Source: Dehalococcoidia bacterium
GTDB taxonomy: Bacteria > Chloroflexota > Dehalococcoidia > SM23-28-2 > RBG-16-64-32
Assembly (NCBI GenBank): GCA_034408935.1
Contig: DAOUMV010000025.1
Coordinates: forward strand, 99,593 to 163,592
DNA: 64,000 bases
Direction of reading: 5' to 3'
The translations under genes and the position numbers were made by a program. Positions 4,180-51,626 of the stretch are shown here, one piece after another. Positions within the stretch are counted from its first letter, which is position 1, and each line of letters begins with the position of its first letter. The notes beneath the pieces are model-generated. The model searched no databases. It was not told where the DNA came from and saw only the letters and a list, made by a program, of their open reading frames with translations.

Positions 4180-4212
4180 GCATCTACTGAGCCTGTCGAA
4201 GGGCGAGCTCCT
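4180..4212. repeat. Palindromic mini-element family C copy (reverse orientation) upstream of the membrane-gene/thrS operon
   Basis: The reverse complement reads GGAGCTCGCCCTTCGACAGGCTCAGTAGATGCC. Confidence 0.5.
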
Positions 4213-7099: not shown

Positions 7100-7345
7100 A
7101 ACATTCGATCAAAGGGTTTTTCGTATCTGAAGTTTGATGGAATGGGGGCCACCAGATACGGGGTTTGATCGTTTGGGGCGAAAACACCCGTTGCGAGGCG
7201 CGCGGGGTATTTAGAGTTTGGGGTCTCGCGGTCGCTTTCTCTGATCGTGCGTCGTTCATGGATAGGGGGCTGAGCGTTCGATCAAGCATTTCGTATCTGC
7301 GGTAGGTGCGCGATGCGGGAGTGTCGTATCCGGCGGGCGCGGCTT
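7100..7345. repeat. MITE-like intergenic repeat, family A (TIR CGATCAAAG / CTTTGATCG), copy 1 with a partial second copy
   Basis: 7106-7190 aligns at roughly 70% with 31736-31822. Both begin with CGATCAAAG and contain GGTTTGATCGTT(T/C)GGGGCG. Partial extra copies lie at 7276-7302 and 7323-7342. The repeat sits between the convergent 3' ends of oppF and the RM gene. Confidence 0.6.
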
Positions 7346-19045: not shown

Positions 19046-19085
19046 AGGGTTTCTCGAACCCTTCGACAGGCTCAGGACAAGCTCT
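19046..19085. repeat. Palindromic mini-element family C (core CCCTTCGACAGGCTCAGGAC), copy in the 5' leader of the PHP gene
   Basis: GGGTTTCTCGAACCCTTCGACAGGCTCAGGACAAGCTC. The core is identical to the copies at 31987, 35357 and 51590. Confidence 0.6.
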
Positions 19086-28094: not shown

Positions 28095-31000
28095 ATGTAC
28101 CTGAAGCGACTCGAGGTTCAGGGCTTCAAGAGCTTCGCTACTCGCACCGTCTTCGATTTCGGCCAGGGCATCACCGCCATCGTCGGCCCCAACGGCTCCG
28201 GCAAGTCCAACATCGCTGATGCCCTTCGCTGGGTGCTTGGCGAGCAGTCCGGCCGCCTGCTGCGCGCACGCAAGATGGAGGACGCCATCTTTGCCGGCTC
28301 CTCCAAGCGCCAGCGGGCCGACAAGGCGGAGGTCACCCTCACCCTGGACAACAGCGACGGCTGGCTGCCCCTGGAGTTCAGCGAAGTCGCCATCACCCGC
28401 CGCGGCTACCGCAACGGCGAGAGCCAGTACCGCATCAACCGCAAGCGGGTCCGCCTGCGCGACCTCCAGGAGCTGCTCGCCAAGTCCAGCATGGCCCAGG
28501 GCTCGTACGCCATCATCGGCCAGGGGTTGGTGGAGACCGTCCTCAACCTGCGCCCCGATGAGCGCCGCCAGCTCATCGAGGAGGCGGCCGACATCCAGCG
28601 CTACCGCTTCCGTATCGACGAGGCGCGGGCCAAGCTGACCGCCACCCACGAGAACGTGGAGCGTGTCAACCTCCTGGTCAAGGAGATCGCTCCCCGTCTC
28701 GGCCACCTCGAGCGCCAGGCCAAGCGGGCCGCTGACTACGCGCGCATCTCCCGCCAACTGTCGCAGGCGCTGCGTGCTCACTACGGGCATCAGTGGCACC
28801 ACTCTCACGAGTCGCTGGCCGTCTCCCGGGCTGCCCACGACCAGGCCCAGGCGGAGTTCACCCAGGCCAAGGTCGCCGCGGAGACCTGCCAGCAGGAGCT
28901 AGCGGAGGTGAGCAAGGGGGTGGAAGAGCGCCGCCGCCGCGCCTCCGCCTCCGCCGCCGACCGCCAGCAGCTAGCCGACCGCATCCGCGAGCTGGAGCAA
29001 AGCCTGGCCGTCTCCGCCCAGCGAGGCACCATCCTTGAGACGCGCCAGCAGGAGCTCCGCGACGAGGTCGCTGCCCTGGAGGAAGAGCGGGCCCGCGCCG
29101 CGGAGGTCGTCTCTGGCCTGGATGCCCGCGGCGAAGAGCTGAAGGAGGCCCTGGCCACCGCCCGGGCGGAGCTGGACCATCGACGCGAAGAACTGGTGGC
29201 CCTCGAGGATGATCTCACCGGAGCGCAGGGGCGGGCCGCCGAAGACGAGGCGAAGAGCCAGCGCCTGCGAGCCGCCGCCGCGGACATCGCAGCCCGAACA
29301 AAGCGTCTCAGCCTCAGTCGCCGCGACCTGGAGAGGGAGGTCGCCCGTCTGGACACCCGCCGTCGCTCCATTATCAGCCAGATGGCGGAGCTCATCCGCG
29401 TCCTCCGCGGCTATCGCGCCGACGATGCCGGGCTGGCCGAGGAGTTGGCCGGGGTGAGCGAGCGGCGCCAGTCCCTGGAGTCGGGGATCACCGAGCTGCG
29501 GGAGTCTTTGGCCAAGGTGGAGGCGAACCAGAACGCTCGCCGCGGCAAGATGGAGGCGCTGGAGGCCCGCCTCAACGTTCTCAGCGAGGCCCAGCGTCAG
29601 CTTCAGTCCGCCCCGCCGGACGAGTCGCCCGTCACGGTTGAGGGTGCCGTGGGCGCCATCTATGAGATCATCCGCGTGCCCCGCGGCCTCGAGCAGGCCA
29701 TCGAGGCCGCCCTCAGCGACATGGTGGAAGCGTTCATCGTCCAGCATCGGGTGGAGGCCGTTGACGCCATTCGAGCCCTCATCGCTCAGGACGCGCCGCG
29801 CACCACCATCCTCCCCCTGGACGCCATCAAGCAGGTGTACCCCCTTAACCTCATGCGGGAGAAGGGGATCATGGGTGTGGCCGCCCAGCTAGTCAAGTGC
29901 CAGCCCCCTTACCAGAAGCTCATCGATGCCCTGCTGGGCCGCACCATAGTTGTCCAGGACGTGGAAACCGCCTCCCGGGTCATCCGCCGCGGCCTGGGCA
30001 CGGTGGTCACCCTTGACGGTGTCGTCTTCCACCCCATGGGGGCCATGACCGCCGGCTTCCCCCGCGCTACCCGCCCCTACATTCTCGGCCATGAGCGCGA
30101 CCTGGAGTCGCTTCCCAAGGAGATCGATCGCCTGCGCCGGGCCCTGGCCGTCACCGAGAGCGAGGCCCACTCCCTGCGCGACCGCCTCCGCCAGGACGAG
30201 ACGGCTCACGCCGCCCTCGCCGCTGAGGTCGACCGGGGCCTGGGCCGCCGGATGCGGGTCCAGAACGCCATCGCCGACCGCCAGCGGCGGCTGGGCCAGC
30301 TCCGCGGCGAGCTGCGAGGCCTCATCTCCTCCAAGGACAACCTGCGCGACCAGGGCGAGAGCCTGGGCCGTGAATGCGATCGCCTGGCAGAGGAGAGGGA
30401 ACAATCCCTGACCGAGGCGGAGCAGTTGAAGGAGTCCGCCAGTTACCTGCAGAAGGCCGGCAATCTGGTGGAGGAACGGCGCGGCCAGCTCCAGCGGGCC
30501 GTGGCCGAGGCGACCTCCCTGCCAGCAGGCCTCGAAGGTCACCTTCAATCGCTGGATGTGCAGAGGGAGAACGGCAAGGCCACCCTGGCCCGCCTGGATG
30601 CCCAGCTCTCCGCCAAGGGCATCCAGCTCCGCGGCCTGGAGATGGAGCGCTCTACACTCGAAAGTAGCGCCCGCTCCGACAACGAGGAGCTGGCCCGGGT
30701 GCGGGAGGAACTGCGGCCCCTGGTGGAGACCTCGGCCCCGGACCAGGGCGAGACCGTCCAGCTTGAGCTGCGCGAGCGAGAGCTACACCAGCAGCTCCTG
30801 GCCGCCCAGGGTCGCATGTTCAAGGCCGAGCGGCACCTCCTGGAAACGGAGACCGAGGTGCGACGCTGGGAGACGGAGGCGGATGCCCTCCGTCAGCGCA
30901 TCCGGGACGAGGGGCTGAGCATCACCGGCGAGGGCGAAGTCGTATCGCCGGAGATCGCCCAGCCGCTTGTGCCCCACTGGCTCGCCGCGGATGGCGAGGA

Positions 31001-31706
31001 GGGCCCCGGCGGCCTGCGCCCCATCTCCGGCGGCGCCGACGTCGACCCCGAGGTACTGGAGCGCGACATCGAAAGGATGCGGGGCCAGCTCCGTCGCCTG
31101 GGCCCCGTGAACGTGGAGGCCGAGGAGGACTACACGGAGCTGCGAGAGCGACACGATTTCCTGACCTCCCAGCTCGACGACCTGAGCGGCGCCGAGAAGG
31201 CGCTCCACCGCGCCATCGACGAGCTACACGGGGTCATGCGCAAGCGCTTCCAGTCGACCTTCGAGACGGTGGCCAGCGGGTTCGAGGAGTACTTCCAGGC
31301 GTTCTTCGGCGGCGGCCGCGCCCGTCTGGCCCTCAGCGAGCCAAGTGACCTCCAGAACACGGGGGTGGAGATCGAGGCGCAGCCGCCGGGGAAGCGGGTC
31401 CAGAGCATGGCGCAGCTCTCCGGCGGGGAGAAGGCGCTGACGGCGGTGTCGCTGCTGTTCGCGCTGCTGCAGGCGAACCCGTCGCCTTTCTGCGTCCTGG
31501 ACGAGGTGGACGCCATGCTGGACGAGGCCAACGTGGGCCGGTTCGTGTCCGCGCTCCAGGAGCTGGCGAAGAAGACGCAGTTCGCTGTCATCACGCACAA
31601 CCGGCGGACGATCGAGGTGTCGGACAGCATCTACGGGGTGTCGATGGGGCCGGACACCGTGTCACGGGTGCTGTCCCTGCGCCTGGCAGACGTGAAGGCG
31701 GACTAG
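28095..31706 (+). CDS. smc: Chromosome segregation protein SMC
   Basis: N-terminal Walker A GPNGSGKSNI, long coiled coils, hinge, C-terminal LSGGEKALTAVSLLFAL signature and Walker B. Confidence 0.95.
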   Translation: MYLKRLEVQGFKSFATRTVFDFGQGITAIVGPNGSGKSNIADALRWVLGEQSGRLLRARKMEDAIFAGSSKRQRADKAEVTLTLDNSDGWLPLEFSEVAITRRGYRNGESQYRINRKRVRLRDLQELLAKSSMAQGSYAIIGQGLVETVLNLRPDERRQLIEEAADIQRYRFRIDEARAKLTATHENVERVNLLVKEIAPRLGHLERQAKRAADYARISRQLSQALRAHYGHQWHHSHESLAVSRAAHDQAQAEFTQAKVAAETCQQELAEVSKGVEERRRRASASAADRQQLADRIRELEQSLAVSAQRGTILETRQQELRDEVAALEEERARAAEVVSGLDARGEELKEALATARAELDHRREELVALEDDLTGAQGRAAEDEAKSQRLRAAAADIAARTKRLSLSRRDLEREVARLDTRRRSIISQMAELIRVLRGYRADDAGLAEELAGVSERRQSLESGITELRESLAKVEANQNARRGKMEALEARLNVLSEAQRQLQSAPPDESPVTVEGAVGAIYEIIRVPRGLEQAIEAALSDMVEAFIVQHRVEAVDAIRALIAQDAPRTTILPLDAIKQVYPLNLMREKGIMGVAAQLVKCQPPYQKLIDALLGRTIVVQDVETASRVIRRGLGTVVTLDGVVFHPMGAMTAGFPRATRPYILGHERDLESLPKEIDRLRRALAVTESEAHSLRDRLRQDETAHAALAAEVDRGLGRRMRVQNAIADRQRRLGQLRGELRGLISSKDNLRDQGESLGRECDRLAEEREQSLTEAEQLKESASYLQKAGNLVEERRGQLQRAVAEATSLPAGLEGHLQSLDVQRENGKATLARLDAQLSAKGIQLRGLEMERSTLESSARSDNEELARVREELRPLVETSAPDQGETVQLELRERELHQQLLAAQGRMFKAERHLLETETEVRRWETEADALRQRIRDEGLSITGEGEVVSPEIAQPLVPHWLAADGEEGPGGLRPISGGADVDPEVLERDIERMRGQLRRLGPVNVEAEEDYTELRERHDFLTSQLDDLSGAEKALHRAIDELHGVMRKRFQSTFETVASGFEEYFQAFFGGGRARLALSEPSDLQNTGVEIEAQPPGKRVQSMAQLSGGEKALTAVSLLFALLQANPSPFCVLDEVDAMLDEANVGRFVSALQELAKKTQFAVITHNRRTIEVSDSIYGVSMGPDTVSRVLSLRLADVKAD

Positions 31707-31730
31707 CAGGCAGGCGTGACCGCGGACTAG

Positions 31731-31930
31731 CGGTCGATCAAAGCGTTTTCCCTATCTGGATTTCGATGGAGAGGGCTGTTTCAGGTTGCCGGTTTGATCG
31801 TTCGGGGCGTGATCTGTTTTTCCAGGGGCCGCCCCGTATCCGGCGAGGCCCGTCCGGGGGCCGATTCGGTTGATGGAACGACGTTCCGCAATAGGGGGCC
31901 GGACGGATGATCAAAGACGCTAACGGGGTG
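31731..31930. repeat. MITE-like intergenic repeat, family A, copy 2
   Basis: CGATCAAAGCGTTTTCCCTATCTGGATTTCGATGG...GGTTTGATCGTTCGGGGCG aligns with 7106-7190. Partial extra copies lie at 31834-31854 and 31907-31928. Confidence 0.6.
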
Positions 31931-31986
31931 CTGAGGAGGGCCTGGGCCGCTCGTGGTTCGACTGGCTCACCACGAGCGGAGTGTAT

Positions 31987-32023
31987 AGCCGCGGGCCCTT
32001 CGACAGGCTCAGGGCGAACGGCT
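31987..32023. repeat. Palindromic mini-element family C, intergenic copy
   Basis: AGCCGCGGGCCCTTCGACAGGCTCAGGGCGAACGGCT with imperfect terminal inverted repeats. Confidence 0.6.
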
Positions 32024-32081
32024 AAGTTGCGCATGACGAGTTGAGCTTACCGCAAGGGGCACGAGAGGTATAAGGTAGGGG

Positions 32082-33611
32082 TTGCAGGGGGTGGGGGACT
32101 GTCGACGTGAAAGCTGGGTGCCGTCTACAACAGTGAAGAACTTCAGACATTCTGTAGCCGACCTCTTGAAACGGCGTACTTCGAAACAAAAAGCCGCTGC
32201 CTCACAGATCGAAGATGCCCTGAAGTATCATCACGACGAGGGTGATCCAGATGAGAACCGACGAACCTGCCCTCCCGACGATGAGCGAATTGATATCCAC
32301 TGCGTATGGGTTGTGGAACTTTACCCGCCGTCACAGGTGGATCAGCTGGTATCACATATTCGCGGTCTAGGTTGGGCGGAAGCGGACGCCACGATGGACC
32401 GAGAAGGTCTCGAATCATGGATACGAGAGTCCACATTGAGTGTGGGAAAGGCGGGTTGGAAGAATCTCAATAATATTGTCCGTCCAGGCGATACGCGCTT
32501 CTTCTTTGGATCACCGCGGAGCGCCTCCCTTCCAGATGTGGCCGACTACGCCATGGGTGGGATTCATCAAATCTTTCCGGGTCTTGTCGGGGTCGTCCTG
32601 CAGTTTGTTCTCAGGGACGATGCTGCAAGGCGCATTGATTTGGAGCTGCGGCGTGGGCGTAAGACCTTTGCTGTGCCCGGTGCCCGCGGTGTCGCGCTCA
32701 TGACACCCCATCATCAGAAGATGGAGTCTTGTTCGCAAGTGCGTGAGGAGATCAGGCAGAGCTGTGCATCCTGGTTCCGCACTCATTTGCCTGGCTTCTT
32801 TTCGTCAATGGGAGAGAGAGCACAATTTCCTACCGGGGAGTTCATCACATTCCGAAAGGCCAAGCCGTATGAACAACTTCCCAGCGACGAGTGGCCGCAC
32901 TACCTTTGGGTTCTTCATATGGATAACGACTTTGATGTGTGGCAAGCGAGGGAACTGCCTGGTGTTCGATTGGAGTGCGGCTCGTCAAGGGAAGGGACCA
33001 CCTTCGCTTTGACATTTGCTGCTCAAGAGTGTCAATACTTCGCCGCCGAGACAGACGATGAATGGAAGTCCCATGGCGGACGGAATCGCCACGGGTATGC
33101 CAACAGACTGAGGCACGTCGAATTTGCGCTCATGAGATGGGCGCTCTACGCGCTTCTAACGAATGTTGAAGGGCAGTTCGCGTCCCTACGAAACCGGGTC
33201 GCCAGCATAGATCTGGGCAATGCGGGCCGCGCCGCTCGGATGCTGCAAGCCGTCCAAGCGGACCTGCTGACCTTGTCAAGAGATGTCGTGCCCGTGGCTT
33301 CCGAACTGAAAGAGTTCTCGGAACGGCCGGGGTGGTTTCACTCCCAAGTCTATGAGTTTCGTCCCATGGGCAATATGCGCTCCAACGAGCCGCATTTGTT
33401 CGAGGGGTTGCGGCAGGGGCTCGCCAGGCGCGCGGTGCGTCTTCAAGGATTCGAGCGGGAGGTCAAAGACGCAGCGACAAGCCAGGGAGCATTGGTGGCA
33501 ACGATTTCTCAGAGCCGGGCCAGTGACAACATAGTCAAACTGACCATCGCGATCGTTGTTCTGACGGCTGTCGTCGCCGGTCTGACCGGCTGGCTAGCGT
33601 TCTTCGACTAG
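32082..33611 (+). CDS. Hypothetical tail-anchored protein (509 aa, single C-terminal TM helix) on a lower-GC island
   Basis: GC is about 50-55% against about 68% in the flanks. TTG start with an AAGGTAGGGG RBS. C-terminal TM helix IVKLTIAIVVLTAVVAGLTGWLAFF. No recognisable domain. Confidence 0.5.
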   Translation: MQGVGDCRRESWVPSTTVKNFRHSVADLLKRRTSKQKAAASQIEDALKYHHDEGDPDENRRTCPPDDERIDIHCVWVVELYPPSQVDQLVSHIRGLGWAEADATMDREGLESWIRESTLSVGKAGWKNLNNIVRPGDTRFFFGSPRSASLPDVADYAMGGIHQIFPGLVGVVLQFVLRDDAARRIDLELRRGRKTFAVPGARGVALMTPHHQKMESCSQVREEIRQSCASWFRTHLPGFFSSMGERAQFPTGEFITFRKAKPYEQLPSDEWPHYLWVLHMDNDFDVWQARELPGVRLECGSSREGTTFALTFAAQECQYFAAETDDEWKSHGGRNRHGYANRLRHVEFALMRWALYALLTNVEGQFASLRNRVASIDLGNAGRAARMLQAVQADLLTLSRDVVPVASELKEFSERPGWFHSQVYEFRPMGNMRSNEPHLFEGLRQGLARRAVRLQGFEREVKDAATSQGALVATISQSRASDNIVKLTIAIVVLTAVVAGLTGWLAFFD

Positions 33612-33663
33612 GCACTTCCGCCTTCCGCTTGCCGCACCCTTCCCCTGCCCCTATCATCGGGGC

Positions 33664-34854
33664 GTGGTGAAGGAGCCGGTTTCCGAGCACCCGCGTGTCG
33701 CCGCGTGGCTGGGGCACGTGCGCGCCCTGGCGGAGGGAATCGGCGCGCGCGGCGCGACGCGGGAGGGGGAGCGCAAGGGCTCGGAATACGCCAAGGCTCA
33801 GTTCGAAGGGATGGGGCTGACCCCGGTCTGGGAGTCGTTCCGTGGGGCGCGTTCGATCTTCCACCCACACTTGCTCGGCAGCGTGCTGATGCTGCTTGCC
33901 TTCGCCGTCTACCCGCTCGGTGGGCGGGTCACGGCCGCTGTGGCAGCGGCGCTGAGCGTGCTGGTGGTGGTGTCGGAGGTGCAAGAGCTCAGTTTTCGGG
34001 ACAACCTCCTGCGTCGCCTGGTGCCCAAGGGTGAGAGCCAGAACGTCTACAGCGTCATCGCACCCAAAGCTGAACACAGTGGCGATCTGGTGCTTGTGGG
34101 TCACGTCGACACGCAGCGGACTCCGCTGATCTTCCGCAGCCGCCGCTGGGTCAAGGCTTACGACCGCTTCACGATGATCGTCTTCGTGACCTTCGTCGCC
34201 CAAGTGTTGTTGTACGCCCTGGGTGCCATCTTGTCCTGGGGCTGGGTCTGGTACGCCACTATCCCTACGGCGGTCTGCGCGGTGCTGCTCGCGGCCGTGT
34301 GCCTAGAGGCGGATTCGACGCCGTTCACGGCCGGGGCCAACGACAACGCCACCGGGGCAGGCATCGTGCTGACCCTGGCCGAGGCGCTGGCCAGAAACTC
34401 GCTGAAGCACAGGCGGGTGTTCGCAGTGGTGACCGGATGCGAGGAGGTCCAGCACTACGGGATGATCGACTGGTACAGGCGCCACCGCACTGAACTCAAG
34501 AATCCGAAAGCGATAGTGTTCGAGATGCTGGGCTGCGCCGGGCCTGCCTGGGGGACGCGCGAGGGGATCATCGTGCCCTTCAGGAGCGACCCCGAACTCG
34601 CGGGCATGGCTGAACGGCTGGCGGCCGCCCATCCCGAGTGGGAAGCGTATGGCTGCAAGATAAGCGGGGGCAACTCGGAGCTCGCTGATGCTGTGCGCTT
34701 CAAGGTGCCGGGCATTACGATTTGGGGCATCGGGCGAGACGGCGAAGCACCTCACTGGCACCAGCGCGGCGATACGTTCGACAAGATGAACCCGGATGTG
34801 ATGGAGCACGCCTGGGACCTAACCTGGGCGCTGGTGCAGGAACTCGACCGGTAG
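33664..34854 (+). CDS. M28-family Zn peptidase with membrane-spanning segments
   Basis: VLVGHVDT, NDNATGAGIVL and CEEVQHYG are M28 metal-binding motifs. It has internal TM helices. Confidence 0.7.
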   Translation: MVKEPVSEHPRVAAWLGHVRALAEGIGARGATREGERKGSEYAKAQFEGMGLTPVWESFRGARSIFHPHLLGSVLMLLAFAVYPLGGRVTAAVAAALSVLVVVSEVQELSFRDNLLRRLVPKGESQNVYSVIAPKAEHSGDLVLVGHVDTQRTPLIFRSRRWVKAYDRFTMIVFVTFVAQVLLYALGAILSWGWVWYATIPTAVCAVLLAAVCLEADSTPFTAGANDNATGAGIVLTLAEALARNSLKHRRVFAVVTGCEEVQHYGMIDWYRRHRTELKNPKAIVFEMLGCAGPAWGTREGIIVPFRSDPELAGMAERLAAAHPEWEAYGCKISGGNSELADAVRFKVPGITIWGIGRDGEAPHWHQRGDTFDKMNPDVMEHAWDLTWALVQELDR

Positions 34855-34930
34855 CCCCACCGCGATCCCTCTTAGGTTGGGCAGGACCTTCGCTTGCCCC
34901 TCTCCCCACCGCCCCCTATTATCGAGCCGT

Positions 34931-36019
34931 ATGGTGCGCTTCTTCCGTCGCAAGCAAGAGGGCCCCGCCACGCCAGCAGAGCCTGTCGAGCCCGCTGAAG
35001 GCGCCGAGGCGCCGGAGCAGCCCGTCGGCGCCGAGCCGTCTGAGGCCGTCGAGGCGCCCCACGATGTCGAGCAGGCGGTCGAGAAGACGCGGCGCACGTG
35101 GTTCTCCCGCATCGGGGGGCTGTTCCGCCGCGGCCTGGACGACGAGCTGTGGGACGAACTGGAGGAGACGCTGATCGCCGCCGACACCGGCGTGGAGACC
35201 ACCGTCAAGGTGCTGGAGAACCTGAAGGAGCGGGTGAAGGCGGAGGGGATCAGCGACCCGGAGCGGGCGGAGGGGGCGCTGAAGGAAGAGCTGCTGTCGA
35301 TCCTTGAGGTGGACGCGCGGCCGGGGAGGTTGTGGGGGCTTGCGGGGGGAGATGAGACCGCTCACCCTTCGACAGGGCTCAGGGTGAGCGGAGATGAGGC
35401 GCCGCCGAAGCCGGCGGTGGTGCTCGTCATCGGGGTGAACGGCACGGGGAAGACCACGAGCATCGCCAAACTCGCCCACGCCTACAGGGAGGGGGGCCAG
35501 AAGGTAATCATGGCCGCCGGCGACACGTTTCGCGCCGCCGCCATCGATCAGGTGAAGCAATGGGGCCAGCGGGTGGGCGTGGACGTGATCGCCCACAAGG
35601 AGGGGGCCGACCCCGGGGCGGTCGTGTTCGACGCCCTCTCGGCCGCCCAGAGTCGCGACGCCGACGTCGTCATCATCGACACCGCCGGGCGGTTGCACAC
35701 GAAGGTCAACCTGATGCAGGAGCTGCGCAAGGTCAACCGGGTCATCCAGCGCAAGTTCCCGGACGCGCCCCACGAGGTGCTGCTGGTGCTAGACGCTACG
35801 AGCGGGCAGAATGCCCTGCCCCAGGCGAAGTACTTCACCGAGGCGGTGGGCGTGACCGGCGTCCTCCTGGCCAAGCTGGACGGGACCGCTAAGGGCGGCG
35901 TCATCTTCGCCGTGTGCGACCAACTGCGCATCCCCGTACGCTTCGTCGGCACCGGCGAGAGAGCGGACGACCTGGCGCATTTCGAGCCCAGGCGGTTCGT
36001 GGACGCGCTTTTCGCCTAG
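34931..36019 (+). CDS. ftsY: Signal recognition particle receptor FtsY
   Basis: MVRFFRRKQ N-terminus, acidic A-domain, NG domain with GVNGTGKTT, DTAGR and the C-terminal GTGE motif. It carries an in-frame mini-element insertion at 35357-35389. Confidence 0.9.
   Translation: MVRFFRRKQEGPATPAEPVEPAEGAEAPEQPVGAEPSEAVEAPHDVEQAVEKTRRTWFSRIGGLFRRGLDDELWDELEETLIAADTGVETTVKVLENLKERVKAEGISDPERAEGALKEELLSILEVDARPGRLWGLAGGDETAHPSTGLRVSGDEAPPKPAVVLVIGVNGTGKTTSIAKLAHAYREGGQKVIMAAGDTFRAAAIDQVKQWGQRVGVDVIAHKEGADPGAVVFDALSAAQSRDADVVIIDTAGRLHTKVNLMQELRKVNRVIQRKFPDAPHEVLLVLDATSGQNALPQAKYFTEAVGVTGVLLAKLDGTAKGGVIFAVCDQLRIPVRFVGTGERADDLAHFEPRRFVDALFA
35357..35389. mobile_element. Palindromic mini-element family C copy inserted in-frame in ftsY, flanked by a 9-bp direct repeat GGAGATGAG
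   Basis: ACCGCTCACCCTTCGACAGGGCTCAGGGTGAGC has 10-bp perfect terminal inverted repeats (CGCTCACCCT / AGGGTGAGCG). Direct repeats lie at 35348-35356 and 35390-35398. Element plus duplication is 42 nt, i.e. 14 codons, encoding AHPSTGLRVSG in the FtsY A-domain. Confidence 0.65.
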
Positions 36020-44010: not shown

Positions 44011-45981
44011 ATGCAGTACTTGCCACGTGCGATTACTTCTCTGGTGGCCCAGGGTGCCGTAGGGGGAGTAACCACACGAATTCTTCGAGGAATGAGGGCG
44101 TTAGTTGCGTTGGGAATACTCGTGGGCGTGAGCTTGCTTGCTGCGTATTCAGCGAGTGCGGACACGACTACCAATATCGGGGCGCGCACCTTTACCGAGG
44201 GCAGCAACATATGGGGAAATACCAACATGGTACCCTCCAAAGGTTTCGCCCAATCGTTCACGCTAACGTCATCAGGCGTCTTCACGGGCTTCGATCTCGT
44301 CATGCAGTATGGGAGTGGCGACGTAAGCATCGTGCACACATTTGAATGGGAGGTGCGCGACCTCACTGGCTCAGGATTGCCCGGTACAGTGCTTCGATCT
44401 GGGGACTTCACCCTCACGATGTGGCAGGCGAACGGACCTACCCCCATCCACGTCGATCTCATCACCCCGATCTCTCCTGTCACGAGTGGCGAGAAGTACG
44501 CGATCGCGCTCAAGAGGGTCCTTCCTAATCCTACCCCGGATACGTTCTTCTGGACCTTTGGCGAGGACCCCCCAACCCAAAATGGATTGCGGCCTAATCC
44601 CTACGATGACGGCGAAGCCTTCGAGGAAAACTCGCCTGATATCTGGACAGCCATGGATCCGCCGCAGGACTTCCGCATGACGGTCCACGTTAAACAATGC
44701 GTCCAGGCGCCGCCCAACATAGACCACTGGTGGCCCTTCGATGAGACCGCAGGCCTATCGGCGGCTGATATTATCGGTTTGCGCAACGGCAACACCAAAC
44801 CTGGGGCGATTGGCCTCCCTGGAAATCCCGCTTCGGTGCCCGGGAAGGTAGGCAATGCGTTCCAGTTTGATGGCAGCTCAGCTTTTGTGGAAGTCCCTGA
44901 CGGGCCTGGTATCCTTAGCTACGGAAACCCTGGGCAGGAATTTTCGATAGACGCCTGGATCAAAGTCAAGCCCGAAGATAAATCAGGTATTCTCCCTATT
45001 GTTGACAAACGAAACGAAATAGGAGGTAAAGTAGCGGGATACGAACTCTTCCTCTATGAGGGCAACCTGGGCTTCCAGTTGGCAGACGCATCAGTCAGCA
45101 ATCACGATTGCGACGGTAATCCCACTTCCGCTCCTTCCCCTACCACTTCTTGCACAAACTACGTATCTAATGCCAATGTTGCCGATGGGCTGTGGCATCA
45201 TGTAGCGGTGACAGTCGAAAGGACGGGGACATCACCTAGGGTCAGGCTCTACGTGGACGGTGCTCTCAAATTGACTGGACCGACTAGAATCCACGCGAAC
45301 AACAGCGCGGCTCTACTGATGGGGAAGAACAACCCGGCTGTCTACGCTAGTGGGCAAATCTTCAAGGGTTTGATTGACGAGTTGGAGATCTTCGGCCGCG
45401 CTCTCCCTCAGTCGGATCTCCTGTCAATCGTCAACGCCGACATCGCTGGTAAATGCAAGCCCGTGGTAAAGGACATTCACAAATATTGCATATCGGGTAC
45501 GTCTACAGGGGTCGGTTGGACATGGACAGTGATAATTGGATCAAGTGTATACAGCGGGGTTGTGCTGAACGGAGCTGTCCCCCCCGGAGGCACTGCCGTC
45601 GACCTTGCCTTTAGGTGGGTAGACAGTATGATCGTCGGGGGGGTGAATGACGTGGGGGTACCACCCAGTCAATTTTCAGAACCCCAGGCGAACTGCTTCC
45701 AAATCCCGGGGTTGCACACCCTCACAGTGGATAGCTGCACCGTCACCCATAATCCAAGCGGGTGCAGCTTCAATCCTACGGTGCATGACGTTACAAATGT
45801 CGGCGGCACGACGGAACTGCTTGTTGGCCGCTCGGACACGCCTGACACGCCTGGCAGCGCCGCGGACTCGTCCGGCGGTTCGTCGTTCCACTACGCCGCG
45901 CTTGCTGGCTCGGCGGCAGCGGCTGCGGCCGCGATGGGCGCGTGGTACGTGAGGCGGCGGTTCCGCCAGAGGCGGATCTGA
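44011..45981 (+). CDS. Secreted surface protein with a LamG/concanavalin-A-like lectin domain and a hydrophobic-basic C-terminal anchor-like tail; lower GC
   Basis: N-terminal signal peptide. The LamG-like region (DGSSAFVEVPDGPG ... LWHHVAVTVERTG ... LYVDGAL ... GLIDELEIFGRAL) follows the pattern of laminin G / pentraxin-like jellyrolls. The C-terminus is ALAGSAAAAAAAMGAWYVRRRFRQRRI. GC is about 52%. Confidence 0.65.
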   Translation: MQYLPRAITSLVAQGAVGGVTTRILRGMRALVALGILVGVSLLAAYSASADTTTNIGARTFTEGSNIWGNTNMVPSKGFAQSFTLTSSGVFTGFDLVMQYGSGDVSIVHTFEWEVRDLTGSGLPGTVLRSGDFTLTMWQANGPTPIHVDLITPISPVTSGEKYAIALKRVLPNPTPDTFFWTFGEDPPTQNGLRPNPYDDGEAFEENSPDIWTAMDPPQDFRMTVHVKQCVQAPPNIDHWWPFDETAGLSAADIIGLRNGNTKPGAIGLPGNPASVPGKVGNAFQFDGSSAFVEVPDGPGILSYGNPGQEFSIDAWIKVKPEDKSGILPIVDKRNEIGGKVAGYELFLYEGNLGFQLADASVSNHDCDGNPTSAPSPTTSCTNYVSNANVADGLWHHVAVTVERTGTSPRVRLYVDGALKLTGPTRIHANNSAALLMGKNNPAVYASGQIFKGLIDELEIFGRALPQSDLLSIVNADIAGKCKPVVKDIHKYCISGTSTGVGWTWTVIIGSSVYSGVVLNGAVPPGGTAVDLAFRWVDSMIVGGVNDVGVPPSQFSEPQANCFQIPGLHTLTVDSCTVTHNPSGCSFNPTVHDVTNVGGTTELLVGRSDTPDTPGSAADSSGGSSFHYAALAGSAAAAAAAMGAWYVRRRFRQRRI

Positions 45982-48485: not shown

Positions 48486-51350
48486 CTACGGTGTGCATAC
48501 GGACCCGAAGTACGGCGGCAACACCTTGAACACGTCCCCCAGGTTGATGAAGCCGTCCGGGAGCAGGTCTCTCCGAGGACTCCAGTCAGGGATGGTGTCA
48601 CCGTTCGTGTCGGGCACGTCTGGACTAGAGCCGAAGTACGGTGGGAGCACCTTGAACACGTCCGCCAGGTTGATCACCATGCTGTCGTCGAAGTCCGGGG
48701 GCCAGCACGCCGGGCCGCAGGCGTCAGCAGGATCTGTCCCTATGAGTGTTTCGTCATAGTCGTTGAAGCCATCGGCATCGCAGTCAGAGTCACCAGGGCA
48801 AGGGTCGCAGGCGTCACCAAGGCCCTCGCCATCGTCATCTTCCTGCCCCGCGTTAGGAGTGGACGGGCAGTTGTCGCCTATATCGGACACCGCATCGCCG
48901 TCGGAGTCACACACCGGATCCGCCCCGTCCGGTCGTCCGTCACCATCGTTGTCCACGGTGTCGACGCAATCGTCTGCACCGTTTAGTCCACTAGTGTTTG
49001 GGGACGGGCCTTCCGTATCGCAGGTGTCGCCGGTCTCGTCCTCGTCGACATCTTCCTGACCCGGATTTTCCGTGGCCCGACAATTGTCGACAGCATCGAT
49101 CACACCGTCGCCGTCGGAATCGTCGCAGTGGTCGCCCACGCCATCGCCATCCCAGTCCTCCTGACCAGCGTTGGCTATGTCCGGGCAGTTGTCATCGATG
49201 TCCGCCACCAAGTCGACGTCGGGGTCGTCACAATGGTCGCCGGTGGTGTTCGGGTGGACATCGTCCTCCTGGCCTGGGTTAGCGACATCGGGGCAATTGT
49301 CGACAGTGTTGGGCAAGCCGTCGCGGTCGGAGTCCGCCGGGCAGGTCGTACCCACAGCCACCCCTCCACCCTTGACACCCACGACCGGGATTGGATCACC
49401 GGCTATCGAGTTAGGGCCGTCCCCGTCGTAGATCGCCAGATCTGGAACACCATCAGGGCCGCCCGCGGGGCCGGGGATGATGAGAGGGCTAACGCCTGTC
49501 CCAACAGCCTCTACGGTAATCCTTGCCAGTACGCCATCGCCGTCCTCATGGTTAGCGGGTGGTGGGGGGTTGTTCGTCCCATCTGTCGCCGCGACCGTGA
49601 AGGAACCGTTGGTGTCGGGCACTCCTTCGCTCGCGCTCAGGAAGCCCGCGCCCCCGCCGCTAGCGATGCGCGAGATGATCGTAACGTCGTCGGGCGGGCT
49701 CGAGCCCGCCGCGTCAACGTCGGTAACGCCGGTGACCTTGATGATCGCAGGGTCATAGTCCATATCGACTTGGTAGCCAGCGATCATATCCACGGGGTCT
49801 ACCCGTTCTGCGACTAGATCGAAGGTGTGGGTGTCTCCAACCTCCGCAACCTCCGCACAGCCCTGGACGCTCCCGACATAGTCATCATCGTTTCCCATAG
49901 GATTGGCGTCGATCGCCACTAGGCCCACCTCTCCTGGCACGGGCGTGGGGAGAGTGCACGACGAGCCGAACACCGGCGGCAGCACCTTGATGAGATCAAG
50001 GATGTTGATCACACCGTCTGGAACGAGGTCTCGCCGTTGAGTATGGTCGGGATCACAGGTGGTGGAGCTGAAGCCGGGTGGACACAATACCTGGAGCACG
50101 TCCCCGAAGTTGATCACCTGGTTGTCGTCGAGATCCGGCGGCCAGGCGTTGGCGCCGCAGTCTAGGTCGGGGTCGGTGCCGATGAAGGCTTCGTCGCAAT
50201 CCGTGTACGTGTCGCCATCGTAATCGGCGCAGGGCGTGGGTGTTGGTGTTGGGCTAGGTGTTGGAGTGGGAGAAGGCGTCGGGGCGACGCACGGCTCGCC
50301 CACGGAGATGGCGGCGACTCCCAGGCTCTCCACCGGGATCGGGTCGCCAGGTAGATCGTTGGCGCCGCTGCCGTCGACGATAATGAGATCGGGTATGCCA
50401 TCCGCACCGCCGGCCGCGCCGGGAATGGTGAGAGGACTGGTGCCGTTGGCGACGCCGGTGACGGTGAACCTGGCCAGGACGCCGTCGCCCGACTCGTGGT
50501 GGGCGGGAGGAGGAGACGGGGCGGCGGTGCCGTCGACGCCCACAAACGTGACGGAGTTGGGCTTGGCCGTAAGGTCGGTGTCGGCGACGATGAAGCCTGC
50601 GCCGCCGCCGCTGCCGATGCGGGAGAGGATGCTGACGTCGTTGGGGTTGTTGCTGCCGGCGGGGTCGACAACGATGAGGTCGCACAGCTCCTCGTCGATG
50701 CGCGGGCCGGCACCGCAGTCGGGATCAGCGCGGTCAATCCCGGTGTCGCCGTCGTTGTCGACGCCGTCCGAGCACTGGTTGTCGCCTGGGGAGCCGACGG
50801 AGCCGTCCTCGTGCTGGTCGCCGTCGTTGTCGGTGAAGTCTTGCCAATAGCCAGCCTGCGCGCCGGTGATGTCGTTGTAGCAGTCCTCGTCAAAGCGGCC
50901 GTCGCTGTCGTCGTCGATGCCTATGCCGATCACGGCGGGGTCGTAGTCGATATCGACCTGGTAGCCGGAGATCCTGTCAGCCGGGTCCACCCCCTGCACC
51001 CACAGGTCGACGACAACGGTCTGGCCGACGTCAAGCTCAACACAGGAGTCGGGAGCCGAGACGGTGGTGTCGTCATTGTCAAGGTAGAGCCCTCTCTGAC
51101 AGTCCGGGTCGGCACCGTCGGTCAGGCCGTCCGCGTCGTTGTCGACGTTGTCGTAGCACTGGTTAGTGGCGGGAGCCTTTTGGGTGCCGTCCTCGCCCTG
51201 GTCACCGTTGTCGTCGACGTTGGTGTCGATGGCGACCTCGGTGACAACCTGAGGAACGGCCTGGGCAGGGAGACCCCAGTGGCGAAGGCCAATCACAACC
51301 AGGGCCACAACCATCCCCACCACGAGCGAACCGACCGCAAAGTGTCTCAT
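48486..51350 (-). CDS. Giant secreted/surface repeat protein: thrombospondin type-3-like Ca-binding repeats, dockerin-like repeats, and two internal cohesin-like repeats of about 130 aa
   Basis: Signal anchor. Repeats DNCPxxxNxxQxDxDxDGxGDxCD (TSP3-like), QCxDxVDNDxDGxxDxxDPDC, dockerin-like DGxINxxDxxKVLPPxFGS. Two paralogous blocks (SRIGSGGGAGF... and SRIASGGGAGF...). PT-rich linkers. Promoter TTGACA (rc of 51413-51418) and RBS AAGGGAGG. Confidence 0.8.
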   Translation of the reverse strand: MRHFAVGSLVVGMVVALVVIGLRHWGLPAQAVPQVVTEVAIDTNVDDNGDQGEDGTQKAPATNQCYDNVDNDADGLTDGADPDCQRGLYLDNDDTTVSAPDSCVELDVGQTVVVDLWVQGVDPADRISGYQVDIDYDPAVIGIGIDDDSDGRFDEDCYNDITGAQAGYWQDFTDNDGDQHEDGSVGSPGDNQCSDGVDNDGDTGIDRADPDCGAGPRIDEELCDLIVVDPAGSNNPNDVSILSRIGSGGGAGFIVADTDLTAKPNSVTFVGVDGTAAPSPPPAHHESGDGVLARFTVTGVANGTSPLTIPGAAGGADGIPDLIIVDGSGANDLPGDPIPVESLGVAAISVGEPCVAPTPSPTPTPSPTPTPTPCADYDGDTYTDCDEAFIGTDPDLDCGANAWPPDLDDNQVINFGDVLQVLCPPGFSSTTCDPDHTQRRDLVPDGVINILDLIKVLPPVFGSSCTLPTPVPGEVGLVAIDANPMGNDDDYVGSVQGCAEVAEVGDTHTFDLVAERVDPVDMIAGYQVDMDYDPAIIKVTGVTDVDAAGSSPPDDVTIISRIASGGGAGFLSASEGVPDTNGSFTVAATDGTNNPPPPANHEDGDGVLARITVEAVGTGVSPLIIPGPAGGPDGVPDLAIYDGDGPNSIAGDPIPVVGVKGGGVAVGTTCPADSDRDGLPNTVDNCPDVANPGQEDDVHPNTTGDHCDDPDVDLVADIDDNCPDIANAGQEDWDGDGVGDHCDDSDGDGVIDAVDNCRATENPGQEDVDEDETGDTCDTEGPSPNTSGLNGADDCVDTVDNDGDGRPDGADPVCDSDGDAVSDIGDNCPSTPNAGQEDDDGEGLGDACDPCPGDSDCDADGFNDYDETLIGTDPADACGPACWPPDFDDSMVINLADVFKVLPPYFGSSPDVPDTNGDTIPDWSPRRDLLPDGFINLGDVFKVLPPYFGSVCTP

Positions 51351-51589: not shown

Positions 51590-51626
51590 CCTTCGACAGG
51601 CTCAGGACGAACGGAGAGAAGTGGAG
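51590..51626. repeat. Palindromic mini-element family C copy, plus a rearranged double copy at 51694-51750
   Basis: CTCCGCTCGCCCTTCGACAGGCTCAGGACGAACGGAG with 13-bp imperfect terminal inverted repeats. A second, composite copy is CCCCTTCGACAGGCCCTGCGACGGACTCTTCGACGCTGCTCAGGACAGGCTCAGGAC. Confidence 0.6.

Follow-up and report, generated by a model that had tools for sequence, protein, structure and literature searches.

A gene of a Dehalococcoidia bacterium, located in the 64,000-nucleotide stretch analysed here as a whole (contig DAOUMV010000025.1, positions 99,593 to 163,592; "the window" below), encodes a 509-residue protein that belongs to a large, real and uncharacterised family. As judged from a structural model, the family very probably displays a CorA-like fold. 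Fold and genomic context together make an anti-phage or anti-mobile-element role rather probable, and they leave the full explanation, in which the protein derives from CorA and acts on its own as an abortive-infection effector at the membrane, an even proposition. An initial annotation of this DNA had described the protein as tail-anchored and of unknown family, encoded in a low-GC (guanine plus cytosine) island, and had considered a phage-defence or abortive-infection role as a speculation.

The gene occupies positions 32082..33611 of the + strand, exactly where it had been placed, as a 509-residue open reading frame (ORF) that starts with TTG and is intact in the ORF listing. Several TTG or GTG candidates lie within 32082-32133, and the start codon is uncertain, since homologs show no conservation over the first ~40 residues. 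Aligned end to end with its homologs, the ORF shares 55% identity over 94% with the homolog P0001, with a profile E of 1e-157. Curated libraries are silent on this protein, as the initial annotation had anticipated in finding no recognisable motif: no match was obtained at E<=1 in Pfam, PADLOC (PADLOC-DB v2) or NCBIfam, nor at E<=0.01 in PHROGs, where one of eight homologs (P0010) gave a weak match (E 0.0023). The label of unknown family thus holds for such libraries, but not for sequence space at large. When 1.84 billion cluster representatives were searched exhaustively with a family profile, 1,272 clusters of full-length homologs from at least 12 phyla scored E<=1e-3, and 452 of these scored E<=1e-30. 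The single-sequence, word-index protein search had yielded only two homologs because of the limit of the index and not because of rarity. Members are mostly about 450-570 residues long, shorter fragments being a minority, and those that bear a name in their source records are called "hypothetical protein".

Conservation was evaluated in 129 sequences. Residues D55, N59, W76, E79, P83, P151, F175, K213, R221, W231, P237, G238, F240, P250, E253, W287, R370, F426, Q488, and T495 are kept in at least 89% of them, G238 and P250 being invariant. A narrow-alignment search of GTDB genomes gave no match. A degenerate DNA pattern was subsequently derived from the conserved residues; it recovers ~66% of known members. 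Among 185,579 GTDB species genomes, this pattern identified 74 loci, all 74 of which encode true members. Carriers of the family include Thermomonas fusca (WP_447936298.1), Comamonas aquatica NBRC 14918, Burkholderia ubonensis LMG 20358, and Achromobacter piechaudii NBRC 102461. By record title, 31 of the 74 loci belong to Pseudomonadota and ~19 to Chloroflexota, and the remaining ones to Actinomycetota, Acidobacteriota, Desulfobacterota-type bacteria, Cloacimonadota, Planctomycetota, Cyanobacteriota, Gemmatimonadota, Thermotogota, Atribacterota, and others.

The neighbourhoods of these genes are variable and non-core, and often include defence genes. No conserved partner accompanies the family: among 522 neighbouring ORFs of at least 90 residues from ~81 loci, the biggest cluster covers five loci, at varying positions. 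The gene mostly stands apart from neighbours on the same strand, with a median upstream gap of 134 nucleotides. Furthermore, in 95% of 80 loci the family gene is poorer in GC than its flanking DNA; the mean difference is 8.6 points. Ten contexts were annotated with Pfam, and in seven of them a restriction-modification (RM), Thoeris, OLD, AbiU, TerY-P-like or ABC-3C system lies within about two genes of the family member. The annotated loci are as follows:
L001: a type IIG RM enzyme beside the family gene.
L003 and L004: an OLD-TOPRIM ATPase (OLD/Gabija-like) and a KAP NTPase.
L005 (Thermomonas fusca): Tn7-like cargo with type II Thoeris and an MmeI-like RM enzyme.
L006 and L007: HEPN_AbiU2.
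L008 and L009: no clear defence gene.
L010 and L011: a type ISP RM enzyme, a Schlafen AlbA_2 (SLFN_AlbA_2) protein, and a VWA/PP2C/kinase trio, which we take to resemble TerY-P.
L180: an ABC-3C system, on a second viral contig.
L181: a P2-like prophage, with tape measure, gpU and gpD genes followed by Dam methylase, ThsB, ThsA_Macro and the family gene, after which come a DUF4145 protein and a CAP12/Pycsar TIR protein.

The last of these loci (L181:533-12223, from IMG/VR UViG_3300047320_000365) is in itself a compact defence cluster, placed after the tail genes at the end of the P2-like prophage.

The same tendency is found in the larger set. Among 137 immediate neighbours from the fetched loci, mostly of the GTDB set, the commonest Pfam families are N6_N4_Mtase, AIPR, N6_Mtase, phage integrase, resolvase, rve, ParE, SLFN_AlbA_2, HNH, and HEPN. 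Two or three genes away on either side are found minimal nucleotidyltransferases, DUF4420, Eco57I, WD40, and integrases, together with ordinary genes such as LysR regulators. PADLOC, run on the flanking genes, detected methyltransferases, AbiU, mad2, and MzaE. As a control, 35 ftsY loci were passed through the same pipeline and gave recurrent housekeeping families only (DUF6048, DUF6452, ribosomal L28, HAD, and SMC). Family genes are therefore placed with defence-island genes by guilt by association, in a comparison that is semi-quantified with the ftsY loci as its control. The defence role considered by the initial annotation draws its support from this association with RM, Thoeris, OLD-TOPRIM, AbiU, AIPR, TerY-P-like and ABC-3C systems, a prophage, Tn7-like cargo, and plasmids.

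The same elements suggest another reading, in which the protein would serve the mobile element itself, as an addiction toxin, a superinfection or entry exclusion factor, or a factor of inter-bacterial competition. Eight plasmids carry the family, among them the 8.5-kilobase MobV plasmid pCP157_13 of Paracoccus marcusii, which also harbors a RelE/RelB pair; Tn7-like cargo and a P2-like prophage are mentioned above, and integrases, resolvases, and transposases flank family genes. However, no small antitoxin-like partner is conserved among the ORFs of at least 90 residues, and the family has no match in 50,697 GenBank phage genomes. Host defence genes ride on the same elements, so that the context does not separate the two readings, and a prophage that keeps other phages out is thereby exerting a kind of defence. 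Service to the element is unlikely, though it fares best among the alternatives to an abortive-infection effector.

The second line of evidence for such an effector is structural. With three sequences in the alignment, AlphaFold returned an unusable model with a predicted local distance difference test score (pLDDT) of 53; with the 129-sequence alignment, pLDDT reached 94.4 and the predicted template-modelling (TM) score 0.88. Four parts can be delineated in this model, all on the + strand, with their conserved residues:
32130..32267, +: long N-terminal helix (residues 17-62), with the near-invariant D55 and N59.
32289..33086, +: cytoplasmic alpha/beta domain (residues 70-335), a putative sensor, which holds W76, E79, P83, P151, F175, K213, R221, W231, P237-G238-x-F240, P250, E253, and W287.
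33087..33323, +: helical segment (residues 336-414, with helices 346-374 and 381-414), with the near-invariant R370.
33396..33605, +: residues 439-508, a single helix of 70 residues that corresponds to the stalk of CorA together with its first membrane helix.

The helical segment 336-414 has a position like that of the helix pair found before the stalk of CorA. The hydrophobic, membrane part of the last helix covers about residues 487-508 of 509 (33540-33605), and the protein ends one or two residues later. The sole 19-residue stretch with a Kyte-Doolittle value above 1.6 covers residues 480-509, so that the single C-terminal membrane helix of the initial annotation is recovered by hydropathy and by the model alike. 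With one membrane helix within ~30 residues of the C-terminus, the protein has the layout of a tail-anchored protein, in an orientation that we infer.

Foldseek was used to compare this model with the PDB, and all 50 matches listed are CorA/Mrs2/ZntB channels, with E from 2e-4 and probabilities up to 1.0. The aligned columns number 162-346, and ~270-340 for full-length CorA chains, the alpha/beta domain lying within the columns aligned to the CorA cytoplasmic domain. In the viral structure library, no match was better than E 0.12. In the modelled protein, the alpha/beta domain is combined with a long stalk helix that runs unbroken into the membrane as its first helix there, as in the CorA fold of the metal ion transporter (MIT) superfamily. 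In sequence comparisons, PF01544 CorA is the commonest sub-threshold Pfam match among members (7 of 90, best E 0.0055). A profile search of PDB sequences matched Methanocaldococcus jannaschii CorA at E 0.004, profile positions 434-488 being aligned with chain residues 247-301, in the stalk and first membrane helix. Compared by hhalign with a 10-sequence CorA alignment, the family profile gave E 2e-4 and a probability of 46% over 62 columns only, with positions 437-498 opposite CorA columns 230-291 (Escherichia coli CorA 219-280). In this register, Q, M, LT, A, T, and S of the family (Q488, M491, L494-T495, A498, T502, and S505) stand opposite N, M, LT, A, M, and T of CorA. These family residues fall on one face of the helix because they are spaced three to four apart. 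The opposite positions are N288, M291, L294, T295, A298, M302, and T305 of Thermotoga maritima CorA, on the pore-lining face of its first membrane helix. The best explanation is that the family descends from, or converges on, the CorA/Mrs2/ZntB architecture.

The structural relative is a channel family with an immune-effector branch. The initial annotation had held that confident homology to a housekeeping enzyme family, or homologs consistently found in core-genome context, would speak against its proposal; the listed fold matches are channels and not housekeeping enzymes, the defining motifs of CorA are missing, and the context is variable.

Such a fold might also be that of an accessory CorA-superfamily ion channel or transporter, working in metal or ion homeostasis on mobile elements and having no immune role. 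The 50 listed fold matches are all metal channels, the pore-lining register is conserved, and plasmids often carry CorA genes (299 records). On the other hand, the glycine-methionine-asparagine (GMN) motif, which all 10 reference CorA sequences possess, is found in the last 120 residues of none of the 137 full-length family representatives. One C-terminal hydrophobic segment is the family norm, the second membrane helix is absent, and the proteins end where CorA has its GMN motif. The Pfam CorA gathering score is not reached either. Moreover, the neighbours are RM, Abi (abortive infection), and Thoeris genes and integrases, not metal-resistance genes, and the 74 matches among the species genomes depict a sporadic distribution, for a pattern that recovers about two-thirds of members. 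A metal-homeostasis channel is accordingly improbable. A canonical CorA transporter, considered as a separate candidate, was ruled out by the missing second membrane helix and GMN motif.

A mechanism can be proposed from the model and the contexts. The protein would assemble into a CorA-like, probably pentameric, funnel, in which the single membrane helices would form a central pore lined by the stripe 488/491/495/498/502/505 (consensus Q, M, T, A, T, S). The cytoplasmic domain, which carries most near-invariant residues, would keep this pore closed and would sense phage infection, or an infection-linked change in a small molecule or ion. Activation would open a poorly selective pore and depolarise the membrane, and the infected cell would stop growing or die before phage release, as in abortive infection. 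The gene would act alone, with no conserved partner. The oligomeric pore is a tentative part of this model. A precedent exists in the CorA-family effectors of type III CRISPR systems, membrane proteins that bind S-adenosylmethionine-AMP (SAM-AMP) and are thought to open a membrane pore (PMC10600005). It is conceivable, short of probable, that this widespread family is an anti-phage system of a new kind for which one gene suffices, a channel derived from CorA and cut to its first membrane helix, self-sensing and forming a non-selective pore.

The CRISPR precedent, being gated by SAM-AMP, can also be read differently: the protein would be a membrane effector working in trans, opened by a nucleotide-derived second messenger such as the product of a Thoeris TIR protein, and not self-sensing. 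Type II Thoeris (ThsB and ThsA_Macro) directly adjoins the family gene in two loci (L005:7232-11527 and L181:6506-9898), between which the family proteins are 36% identical and the ThsA proteins 62%; this adjacency could be a coincidence within defence islands or a functional link. In addition, a conserved charged cluster of the cytoplasmic domain could be a ligand site. However, no neighbour is conserved in the ~81 loci, and the gene is alone at most of them; the families that recur in the flanks include none of Thoeris; and type II Thoeris has its own membrane effector, ThsA. An effector opened in trans is as doubtful as the metal channel.

Several points weigh against a self-sufficient CorA-derived effector of abortive infection. 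The case from context is one of association, and no known defence gene lies close to the family member in two of the 10 annotated contexts (L008 and L009) or in the window. The TM-scores of the fold matches are low, 0.17-0.22 when normalised by the query and 0.24-0.38 by the target, with high root-mean-square deviations; the low scores may stem from long helices that are set differently in a monomer model. Sequence support for CorA homology is marginal, the hhalign probability being the 46% given above and the Pfam matches sub-threshold. A pore formed by a helix bundle that lacks the second CorA helix is putative. Lastly, the full ORF was not called by the gene caller of the source assembly, and the window protein has T for the consensus Q488, N for G130, and T for R118. 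These departures at several conserved positions leave the activity of the window copy uncertain.

The stored gene calls, available for an identical sequence (GCA_964417775.1), comprise a 159-residue C-terminal piece (33132-33611) in place of the 509-residue ORF, and a 67-residue antisense ORF at 32511-32714. The missed call is probably due to atypical codon usage. That piece, the departures at Q488, G130, and R118, the lack of a convincing sigma-70 promoter upstream of the gene in a promoter scan, and the seven of 74 GTDB copies that look split or truncated might mean that the gene now has no function, being silent or in decay, or that its frame is open by mere chance in a spacer of low GC content, but a 509-codon open frame with the homology to P0001 and the profile score given above, retaining most near-invariant residues and deviating in ways common to its closest relatives and hence marking a subfamily, makes this very improbable. 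A spurious or chance ORF as such was ruled out by the strength of the homology, since chance cannot give such scores.

The gene itself is very probably foreign, a horizontally acquired accessory gene. The initial annotation had reported a GC drop to about 52% over exactly this gene. The drop is real and coincides with the gene borders, but the gene has 56.4% GC, for a window mean of 66.0%, and 300-nucleotide windows within it fall to 53-55%. It lies 2.9 standard deviations under the mean of all 1530-nucleotide windows. The GC content at third codon positions (GC3) is 0.61 vs 0.79-0.90 in rnc, smc, the M28 peptidase gene, ftsY, and the PMT_2 glycosyltransferase gene, so that its composition is atypical. 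A low-GC gene is not unique in the window. A second island of ~57% GC at 44011-45981 (+ strand) encodes a 656-residue protein with a Laminin_G_3/concanavalin-like lectin domain; this gene, too, may have been acquired horizontally.

Along the window, rnc and smc come first, followed by the low-GC gene, the M28 peptidase gene, and ftsY. The features that border the insertion are the following:
28095..31706, +: smc (Pfam SMC_N at 1e-70 and SMC_hinge), a core gene and the left border of the insertion.
33625..33660, +: promoter-like motif CTTGCC ... CCCCTATCATCG, 15 nucleotides past the stop of the gene and ahead of the M28 peptidase gene (scan match TTGCCG-17-TATCAT).
33664..34854, +: M28 peptidase gene (Pfam Peptidase_M28), with a GC3 of 0.84 and a normal GC content.
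34893-34925: second copy of the promoter-like motif, ahead of ftsY, also present in relatives including L095 (L095:2395-2430).
34931..36019, +: ftsY (Pfam SRP54 and SRP54_N; stored gene call), a core gene and the right border of the variable spot.

The promoter-like motif has the form CTTGCC ... CCCC(C)TATCATCG, the ftsY copy having TATTATCG. The junction was compared by means of metagenomic relatives of ftsY, which were used because M28 genes sit elsewhere in relatives and could not serve to locate an empty site; M28 peptidase homologs carry the names Chloroflexota or Anaerolineales. The relative at L095 has smc and ftsY 83% identical to those of the window and PMT_2 81% identical. Its smc stop and ftsY start are 57 nucleotides apart, and this gap (L095:2376-2434) holds the promoter-like motif only, without a family gene; hence, the gene lies in a lineage-specific insertion. 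The foreign origin of the low-GC island is upheld by this empty junction in a close relative together with the atypical composition. The M28 gene is also absent between smc and ftsY in L095, and smc adjoins ftsY in L103-L105 too, while L097 has the M28 gene followed by ftsY. Other relatives carry other small inserts at this junction: an HTH_3 plus DUF6998 protein at L106:475-1206 and two unknown ORFs at L107:268-1059, both inserts having a GC content below the rest of their loci. The smc-ftsY junction is therefore a variable spot, or local hotspot, in this Chloroflexota lineage. The repeat search revealed no convincing direct repeats or att-like sites flanking the island.

Between smc and the gene lie several repeats:
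31685-31707 and 31709-31731, +: tandem 23-nucleotide duplication (87% identical) that takes in the 3' end of smc with its stop codon (repeat search).
31731..31920, +: copy of a ~190-nucleotide dispersed repeat ("family A"), with a second copy at 7101-7290.
31947..31979, +: perfect 11-base-pair hairpin (CCGCTCGTGGT / ACCACGAGCGG; inverted-repeat search).
31989..32021, +: mini repeat element with core TTCGACAGGCTCAGG (repeat search).

The 23-nucleotide duplication may be a scar of the insertion junction. The copies of the ~190-nucleotide element are 60-74% identical, with conserved blocks, the best stretch reaching 74% identity over 76 nucleotides (blastn, E 7e-8); the element is bounded by GATCAAAG-like ends, and its 19-nucleotide core occurs twice in the window against 0.05 expected. 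The core TTCGACAGGCTCAGG of the mini element occurs four times (4186-4200, 19062-19076, 31999-32013, and 51592-51606) against 0.22 expected. Both dispersed families are found in or near intergenic DNA. Both repeats seen upstream by the initial annotation do exist, but they are modest and show no clear hallmarks of a miniature inverted-repeat transposable element: the ~190-nucleotide family, with two copies in 64 kilobases, exhibits only short internal inverted repeats, with no clear terminal repeats or target-site duplication. The RNA fold of this element is no better than that of shuffled sequence (z-score -0.58), and an Rfam scan of 31000-34500 gave no match. Elsewhere in the window, region 48500-51200 harbors several families of imperfect direct repeats of 47-65 nucleotides, spaced by 105-384 nucleotides within clusters and 1.3-1.8 kilobases between them, which suggests a gene for a repeat-domain protein.

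Should the proposed reading be true, more than 1,000 clusters in at least a dozen phyla, now labelled "hypothetical protein", would represent an unrecognised defence system, and the family would provide the first stand-alone CorA-type immune effector. A housekeeping magnesium channel would then have been recruited to immunity at least twice, in the CorA of type III CRISPR systems and in the present family, and suicide effectors of CorA type would extend past type III CRISPR. The family would also offer a simple one-protein model of a membrane pore gated by a cytoplasmic sensor. In practice, it adds a defence-island marker for poorly studied groups such as Chloroflexota, and it brings to light a gene that the automated calls of the source assembly had overlooked. 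No description of a stand-alone, single-helix CorA-like defence protein was found in the literature, only that of CRISPR-associated CorA; this coverage is incomplete, and an earlier description is possible.

Compared to known systems, the family is closest in architecture to the CorA/Mrs2/ZntB channels (PF01544, MIT superfamily). Both display a cytoplasmic alpha/beta domain, helical arms, and a long stalk helix that enters the membrane, and both have, in the aligned register, a conserved L-T pair with small or polar residues on the pore-lining face. In contrast to these channels, the family has one membrane helix, no GMN motif, and an extra 45-residue N-terminal helix, and its proteins are ~150-200 residues longer. 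Its genes are sporadic and of low GC content, and their surroundings are those of defence or mobile genes, not those of a housekeeping gene.

The CorA of type III CRISPR systems (Chi et al. 2023, PMC10600005) is, like the family in the present reading, a CorA-related membrane immune effector, with a C-terminal pore that is believed to be controlled by a soluble domain at the N-terminus and to kill or arrest the cell. It differs in being tied to cas10 loci and to enzymes that degrade SAM-AMP (NrN or a lyase), and in its modelled CorA-like pentameric transmembrane domain. By its description, it is set apart from the family, which has one membrane helix only, no conserved partner, and no linked enzyme that makes or degrades a signal. 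In the three genes on either side of family members, the 25 commonest Pfam families include no cas, DHH or lyase family, a result that leaves room for rare cases.

Finally, several membrane effectors of abortive infection can be set beside the family, namely the Macro-TM (transmembrane) ThsA of type II Thoeris, the transmembrane effectors of CBASS (cyclic-oligonucleotide-based anti-phage signalling systems) and Pycsar, Csx23, RexB, and AbiZ. Unlike them, the family has no PADLOC match, possesses a CorA-like cytoplasmic fold, and apparently has no signal-making partner. The family nevertheless shares with them the combination of a cytoplasmic sensor or ligand domain with membrane helices, the location in defence islands and prophage hotspots, and the presumed permeabilisation of the membrane.

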